NCBI RefSeq assembly: GCF_050320075.1
Contig: NZ_CP190018.1
Direction: 5' to 3' (one strand)
DNA length: 64,000 bases
Source: Escherichia coli
GTDB taxonomy: Bacteria; Pseudomonadota; Gammaproteobacteria; Enterobacterales; Enterobacteriaceae
Shown: piece after piece, positions 30,588 through 30,829 of the stretch
How the letters are laid out: each line of letters opens with the position of its first letter
Numbering within the stretch: position 1 is the stretch's first letter
Made by a program: the position numbers and the translations under genes
Notes under the pieces: model-generated
What the model saw: only the letters and a program-made list of their open reading frames with translations
What the model was told of the DNA's origin: nothing
Database searches by the model: none

Positions 30588-30829
30588 CGCGATCTCTCTT
30601 AAATAAAAATAAACGTCGCAGATAATAAAGCCCTGATTAAACCAGGCACTATCAGAAATCGCTCATAACTAACGTGTGAAGTATTGTGTACTGGAGGGAG
30701 TTAATTTAACAATTTGAATTTACGTTATAGGTTTTACTGCTACTTTGATATTATTTCGCTCTCCTTAACTAAAAAGTTAAGTGGAGAGCGAAGTTAATAT
30801 GTTAAACCACAGGGTATTTATTAATTTTT

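Follow-up and report, generated by a model that had tools for sequence, protein, structure and literature searches.

The 3' untranslated region (UTR) of yahK in Escherichia coli contains a stem-loop (positions 30755-30792, minus strand, of the window, i.e., of the whole stretch of 64,000 nucleotides analysed here) which probably defines and protects the 3' end of the yahK mRNA, with Rho terminating transcription downstream of it and exonucleases trimming the transcripts back to the stem. We infer that the RNAs ending at this site originate from yahK, that Rho acts specifically on yahK read-through, and that their tails are removed by exonucleases. The hairpin is a previously unannotated example of a well-described element, and the corresponding RNA 3' end was already contained, uninterpreted, in a published table. 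An unannotated palindrome thereby receives a concrete, probable role as yahK mRNA 3'-end stem-loop, with little significance beyond annotation.

The window represents E. coli DNA, 100 % identical in this region to strain 7/2. Both flanking genes are encoded on its minus strand (open reading frames and RefSeq annotation, in case of yahK that of strain 7/2): (i) yahK (30830-31879), coding for an NADPH-dependent aldehyde reductase, and (ii) the downstream gene yahL (29772-30587), which lies outside the element. A position past the yahK stop and ahead of yahL, as given for the repeat by the sequence-only reading (an earlier inspection of the window), therefore holds. On the gene strand, the yahK stop is followed by an AT-rich 37-nt spacer (30793-30829, minus strand) belonging to the yahK 3' UTR, the hairpin, a 167-nt AT-rich spacer and yahL, with the hairpin located 38-40 nt from the yahK stop and the repeat centred ~186 bp ahead of the yahL ATG. 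The GC content of the yahK-yahL spacer amounts to ~32 % versus 52-57 % for yahK. In MG1655, the spacer is of equal length and carries an identical hairpin and 3 differences elsewhere; since its length is the same, the MG1655 position is given exactly by 343933 + (30830 - window position), which places the hairpin at 343971-344008. No open reading frame of at least 20 aa was found on the gene strand of the spacer, in a promoter scan, the gene-strand segment from the yahK 3' end to the hairpin showed no σ70-like promoter, and the SMRT-Cappable-seq and Cappable-seq supplements contain no entry for the yahK-yahL locus.

The inverted repeat cgctctccttaactaaaaagttaagtggagagcg was located at exactly 30757-30790 and proved slightly longer than originally claimed, extending over 30755-30792. 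Its outer arms, TTCGCTCTCC (30755-30764) and GGAGAGCGAA (30783-30792), are 100 % complementary over 10 bp and enclose a 6-bp inner stem (TTAACT/AGTTAA), a 2-nt bulge in one arm (GT on the plus strand, AC on the minus strand) and a 4-nt loop, yielding a total of 16 Watson-Crick pairs. The gene-strand RNA accordingly reads UUCGCUCUCC-AC-UUAACU-UUUU-AGUUAA-GGAGAGCGAA. As RNA, the 34-nt core folds with a dG of -17.5 kcal/mol (minus strand) or -17.1 kcal/mol (plus strand), corresponding to a z of about -5.8 to -6.1 versus dinucleotide shuffles. Clusters of 40-nt windows at or below -17 kcal/mol number 65 in the 64-kb window versus 34-53 in shuffles; since folding energies this low are in themselves no rarity in a GC-rich window such as this, repeat length is the better statistic. 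Inverted repeats of at least 16 pairs occur twice in the 64-kb window versus 0 times in 30 shuffles, and those of at least 14 pairs 3 times versus a mean of 0.13 (dinucleotide shuffles, n=30; one small internal loop permitted, loop of 3-8 nt). The hairpin is longer than chance allows. Elsewhere in the window, a 15-pair inverted repeat CCAAGCAGTGCGCTGCTAAGCAGCAGCGCACTTTGG is located inside a 393-aa open reading frame (15167-15202, minus strand), and a 19-bp perfect palindrome CTGTAAATATCCTGGCATTACTAATGCCAGGATATTTACAG is found between convergent open reading frames (56390-56430). The latter directly follows a canonical terminator (CAGGAATGGATTCCTG + TCTTTTT), which matches the strong published Term-seq 3' end 324603(-) of MG1655 (PMC7815308).

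The hairpin does not belong to a family of dispersed repeats, membership of which was to refute the sequence-only reading. The search for further copies proposed there was run and yielded one per E. coli genome: within the window, a single match was obtained when up to 3 mismatches were allowed, and in 5,088 of 5,426 complete E. coli genomes (blastn, E <= 10), the repeat occupied a median of 1 place. In the occasional genome with 2 places, the perfect-palindrome allele probably also matches its own reverse strand. Phage and plasmid collections contained nothing related, the matches being just chance 22-nt matches, mislabelled chromosomes and large K-12 plasmids (~213-242 kb), the last of which are probably F'. 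Likewise, Rfam 15 gave no match on the hairpin even at E <= 10.

Evidence for a function at the RNA level comes from the 3' ends mapped in MG1655 by Term-seq (Adams et al. 2021, eLife 10:e62438, PMC7815308). Supplementary file 1 of that study lists a 3' end at 344013(+) in the sheet for LB at OD 2.0 and one at 344011(+) in the third sheet, which is M63 glucose according to the caption. The printed contexts of these 3' ends terminate with ...TTCGCTCTCCACTTAACTTTTTAGTTAAGGAGAGCGAAATAAT and ...GCGAAATA and match the minus strand of the window. The positions 344011 and 344013 correspond to window 30752 and 30750 (minus strand), respectively, i.e., 3 and 5 nt past the outer stem on the yahK strand, within the tail AUAAU; thus, the steady-state RNA 3' end shifts by 2 nt between the two conditions. 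Both ends have low read counts (about 750-1,130). In those two conditions, no further curated 3' end is present on either strand from ~329.5 kb to 345,390, and the LB OD 0.4 list contains none in this stretch. Directly ahead of yahM, a 3' end at 345390 is listed under all three conditions (PMC7815308). Since the 3' ends lie just past the stem on the yahK strand, the hairpin behaves as the 3'-terminal structure of the yahK transcript.

Both ends were classed as 'orphan' by Adams et al.; this class takes in long 3' UTRs, because the 'primary' class stops 50 nt after the gene (PMC7815308). In a second table of the same study they carry the label 'upstream ORF' at -163/-165 relative to yahL, a purely positional label given to every 3' end that precedes an open reading frame by up to 200 nt. 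Two 'orphan' Term-seq ends tabulated as upstream of yahL may therefore be re-labelled as the probable 3' end of yahK. The TERMITe tables contain no entry for yahK or yahL.

A Rho termination region with its peak at 344049(+) (score 3.61, p = 1.8e-5) is reported in Supplementary file 2 of the same study (PMC7815308). It corresponds to window 30714 and lies 36-38 nt beyond the mapped 3' ends. The underlying DirectRNA-seq counts are 32 upstream and 24 downstream without bicyclomycin, and 83 upstream and 225 downstream with bicyclomycin, the score being computed on 800-nt windows (PMC7815308). Since downstream reads exceed upstream reads in the presence of bicyclomycin, this signal must in part reflect transcription that is new or derepressed within the AT-rich yahL region, beside any yahK read-through. 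According to the authors, the positions of Rho regions lie near processed 3' ends and not near true termination sites (PMC7815308). The composition of the RNA immediately past the hairpin is in line with Rho loading: a C-rich, G-poor and poorly structured stretch (30668-30742, minus strand) forms a candidate Rho-loading (rut) region, the 75 nt past the hairpin having 22-23 % C and 8 % G and a C/G of 2.6-2.8 (60-nt windows starting at MG1655 344021-344036), at a modest absolute C content. Further along the chromosome, a strong Rho region (score 6.2) is located inside yahM at 345585 (PMC7815308).

Taken together, the following course of events may be proposed. RNA polymerase would transcribe past the hairpin, because no U-tract follows the stem. 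Rho would then load on the C-rich, G-poor, untranslated RNA just past the hairpin and end transcription before or within the start of yahL. The resulting tail would be trimmed by PNPase and RNase II in 3'-to-5' direction until these enzymes stall at the base of the stem, which would leave 3' ends 3-5 nt past it. The underlying idea of a protective 3' stem-loop was put forward as a hypothesis by Peters et al. (2012).

Three alleles of the hairpin exist within E. coli: (i) the K-12/window allele, a stem with AC bulge (3,951 records with exact match), (ii) the UTI89-type allele (547 records with exact match), which refolds into 7 bp, a 2x2 internal loop and another 7 bp, and (iii) the G749-type allele (404 records with exact match), which lacks the AC and forms a perfect 16-17-bp palindrome. 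The alleles are distinguished by 2-nt changes confined to a single arm, and all three fold stably (about -20 to -30 kcal/mol with flanks). One-arm changes with a preserved fold suit an RNA hairpin better than a symmetric dimer operator. True compensatory changes in the hairpin were not seen among the E. coli alleles, and the hairpin, with 0 substitutions in 38 nt versus about 2 expected, is not significantly more conserved than its flanks. The natural stem alleles may offer a small test set for the relation of stem geometry to 3'-end protection.

The presence of yahL itself is variable. B2-type strains (UTI89, G749) lack precisely an 835-bp segment (window 29759-30593) with otherwise collinear flanks, which comprises the yahL open reading frame with 6 nt ahead of it and 13 nt past it and no other gene. 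This is a clean polymorphism in which one low-GC gene is either present or absent, and no obvious direct repeats were found at the junctions of the segment. In about 950 records without yahL, the hairpin is kept beside yahK, which is weak evidence, since the whole spacer is retained as well. An island boundary or recombination site at the hairpin was ruled out, the yahL breakpoints (29759 and 30593) being ~160 bp away from it. Insertion elements were encountered in individual strains: in NZ_CP102947 (~2486-2529 of the retrieved locus L006), the hairpin loop is the exact site of an IS1 junction, with unrelated sequence in place of the yahK side, and in NZ_AP027676 (4037-5356 of locus L003), yahK and most of the spacer have given way to an IS3-family element. 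Both are single events and show no hot spot.

Outside E. coli, no copy of the hairpin was recovered among the matches listed in a scan of YahK-encoding contigs, in which no Escherichia loci were listed. Protein-based look-ups yielded one E. coli-like contig with an identical hairpin, the flanks in other genera being non-homologous. Unrelated hairpins are found past the stop of the yahK homologues of Enterobacter sp. BIGb0383 (about 35 nt) and Salmonella bongori (about 11 nt), both looking more terminator-like. Among the matches listed, YahK homologues of Betaproteobacteria and Pseudomonas (L008-L030) share 79-85 % protein identity with E. coli YahK, and those of other Enterobacteriaceae 86-89 %; these near-equal identities suggest, as far as protein comparison goes, a horizontal spread of the aldehyde reductase.

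The main rival to a protective 3' structure is weak, non-canonical intrinsic termination of yahK: stem and A/U-rich tail (AAAUAAUAU) would jointly make RNA polymerase release some transcripts at +5 to +7 from the G-C stem, with Rho as a back-up on read-through. A canonical intrinsic terminator was ruled out, since the stem is followed by a tail in which just 2-3 of 8 nt are U, versus the required ~5 or more. This agrees with the sequence-only reading, which had noted the missing T-run on either strand: the gene-strand tail AAAUAAUAUC contains no U-tract, the sequence ahead of the stem (AACAUAUUAAC) no A-tract and the opposite-strand tail AAGUUAAUAUG no T-run, and the site was not reported by a consensus terminator scan. 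As indicative values only, the tail scores 0.3-0.8 versus 5.1 for a canonical control, and the classical discriminant for tail plus stem is strongly negative (-42 to -62). The RNA 3' ends lie 5 and 7 nt past the last G-C pair of the core stem. This is near the usual distance of intrinsic termination from a G-C stem. The tail makes only A-U/A-T hybrid pairs, and the yahK homologues of Enterobacter and S. bongori possess their more terminator-like hairpins likewise soon after the stop; moreover, inefficient intrinsic terminators backed by Rho are discussed by Dar & Sorek (PMC6061677). However, the poor U content, the absence of an A-tract, the negative outcome of the consensus scan and the discriminant all argue against this possibility, as do the 2-nt movement of the 3' end between conditions and the Rho-sensitive region directly downstream. 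Weak intrinsic termination is therefore considered rather unlikely.

The single terminator-like match of the scan was a second, small hairpin in the spacer ~45 nt upstream of the yahL ATG (30632-30646, minus strand; CCTGGTTTAATCAGG followed by GCTTTATTAT, tail to ~30622). The window closes this stem with C-G, MG1655 with C.A, and both UTI89 and G749 with U-A, a series which represents a possible compensatory path. However, the hairpin reaches a dG of just -4.5 kcal/mol and coincides with no mapped Term-seq 3' end, and it may instead overlap a TATTAT -10-like box for yahL.

A further explanation places the hairpin in a yahL leader, where it would act as an attenuator, either in a long 5' UTR of yahL or in a yahK-yahL read-through RNA, causing conditional premature termination that would control yahL expression. 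The listing of the ends at -163/-165 from yahL by Adams et al. (PMC7815308) would fit such a role, as would the ~9-fold rise (24 to 225) with bicyclomycin of the counts for the 800 nt past 344049, i.e., nearly all of yahL, from which it follows that Rho limits expression of the yahL region. The listing is purely positional, however, and there is neither a σ70-like promoter between the yahK 3' end and the hairpin nor an Rfam match, nor is an alternative pairing partner or upstream open reading frame evident; in addition, the hairpin is retained in the about 950 records without yahL. A leader function is hence improbable. Of the interpretation put forward by the sequence-only reading, the structured RNA element fits; the assignment of this element to yahL lacks support, given 3' ends on the yahK strand past the stem and a hairpin that is kept in the absence of yahL.

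Still less probably, the hairpin might serve as a conditional barrier for yahK transcription into yahL, or the palindrome might be bound by a local regulator such as XtpA. If the hairpin were such a barrier, the bulged, perfect and looped alleles would tune read-through or mRNA stability between phylogroups, and the hairpin would set how far yahK transcription invades the AT-rich, E. coli-specific yahL. The xtpA gene (b4845, 'putative transcriptional regulator') is annotated in MG1655 RefSeq between yahL and yahM and overlaps the start of yahM (5253-5435 of the MG1655 locus, L004; window about 29330-29520, minus strand). No paper on XtpA was found in the literature, and nothing relevant on yahK/yahL in connection with ProQ, Hfq, bicyclomycin or H-NS.

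The reading originally preferred from the sequence, a DNA operator of a dimeric transcription factor for yahL or yahK, appears very unlikely. It would account for the dyad symmetry, which is perfect over 16-17 bp in 404 records, and for the intergenic position, and a small gene for a putative regulator (xtpA) is annotated nearby in MG1655. The dyad geometry is not constant, however: the commonest allele (3,951 records) has a 2-bp insertion inside one arm and the second (547 records) another 2-nt change in the same arm, both of which displace the outer half-site against the inner one on just one of the two sides, so that spacing is not fixed. With its centre ~186 bp ahead of the yahL ATG and past the end of yahK, the repeat would also be unusually placed for an operator, and no σ70-like promoter was found upstream of the hairpin on the gene strand. 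Reports or data on transcription factor binding to the site were not found, the only nearby genomic SELEX peak lying inside yahL and involving RNA polymerase holoenzymes, and the RNA 3' ends are fully explained without a protein. In that SELEX study (PMC5493296), the sigma-32, sigma-28 and FecI holoenzymes bound strongly at one spot inside yahL (old K-12 coordinate 343660, window about 30300-30350), which is consistent with promiscuous binding of polymerase to the AT-rich yahL. More generally, a strong hairpin without U-tract past a stop codon should be taken first for a structure protecting the 3' end of a Rho-terminated or processed transcript, before an operator is considered; the yahK site is a clean example.

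That the palindrome has no selected function at all, being fortuitous or a relic, e.g., of a past indel in an AT-rich acquired region, and merely stalls exonucleases, would fit its restriction to E. coli as far as seen, a conservation equal to that of the flanks and the uncompensated one-arm changes, but is just as unlikely as an operator, considering that a 16-pair repeat is unexpected by chance, that every allele seen folds strongly, that the site lies just past the yahK stop like the unrelated hairpins of the homologues, and that the region has its only stable 3' end there.

The protective yahK 3' stem-loop may finally be compared with three known types of elements. Intrinsic terminators share with it a GC-containing stem-loop soon after the stop and an RNA 3' end a few nt past the stem, but own a 7-8-nt U-tract, whereas the yahK hairpin has neither U-tract nor A-tract. 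REP/BIME elements are likewise extragenic palindromes 3' of a gene which are able to block 3' exonucleases, and also stabilise the 3' ends of upstream mRNAs; in contrast to these dispersed multi-copy sequences, the yahK hairpin is single-copy and has no related copies. The closest resemblance is to the Rho-dependent transcripts of Dar & Sorek 2018 (Nucleic Acids Res 46:6797, PMC6061677), which have precise 3' ends directly after stable stem-loops of terminator-like energy without U-tract or upstream A-tract, sequence with more C than G or rut sites just downstream, and trimming by PNPase and RNase II. Common to this class and the yahK element are (i) a stable stem-loop before a precise 3' end with neither U-rich tail nor A-tract, (ii) more C than G just downstream, (iii) a bicyclomycin-sensitive region nearby, and (iv) the location in the 3' UTR of a protein-coding gene. 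They differ in that the yahK stem, with 16 bp and an AT-rich inner part, is at the long end, and in that Rho dependence and trimming are experimentally established for the class and inferred for yahK. The yahK hairpin thus displays each of the sequence-level features of the Dar & Sorek class, and the mapped 3' ends lie where the model predicts them.
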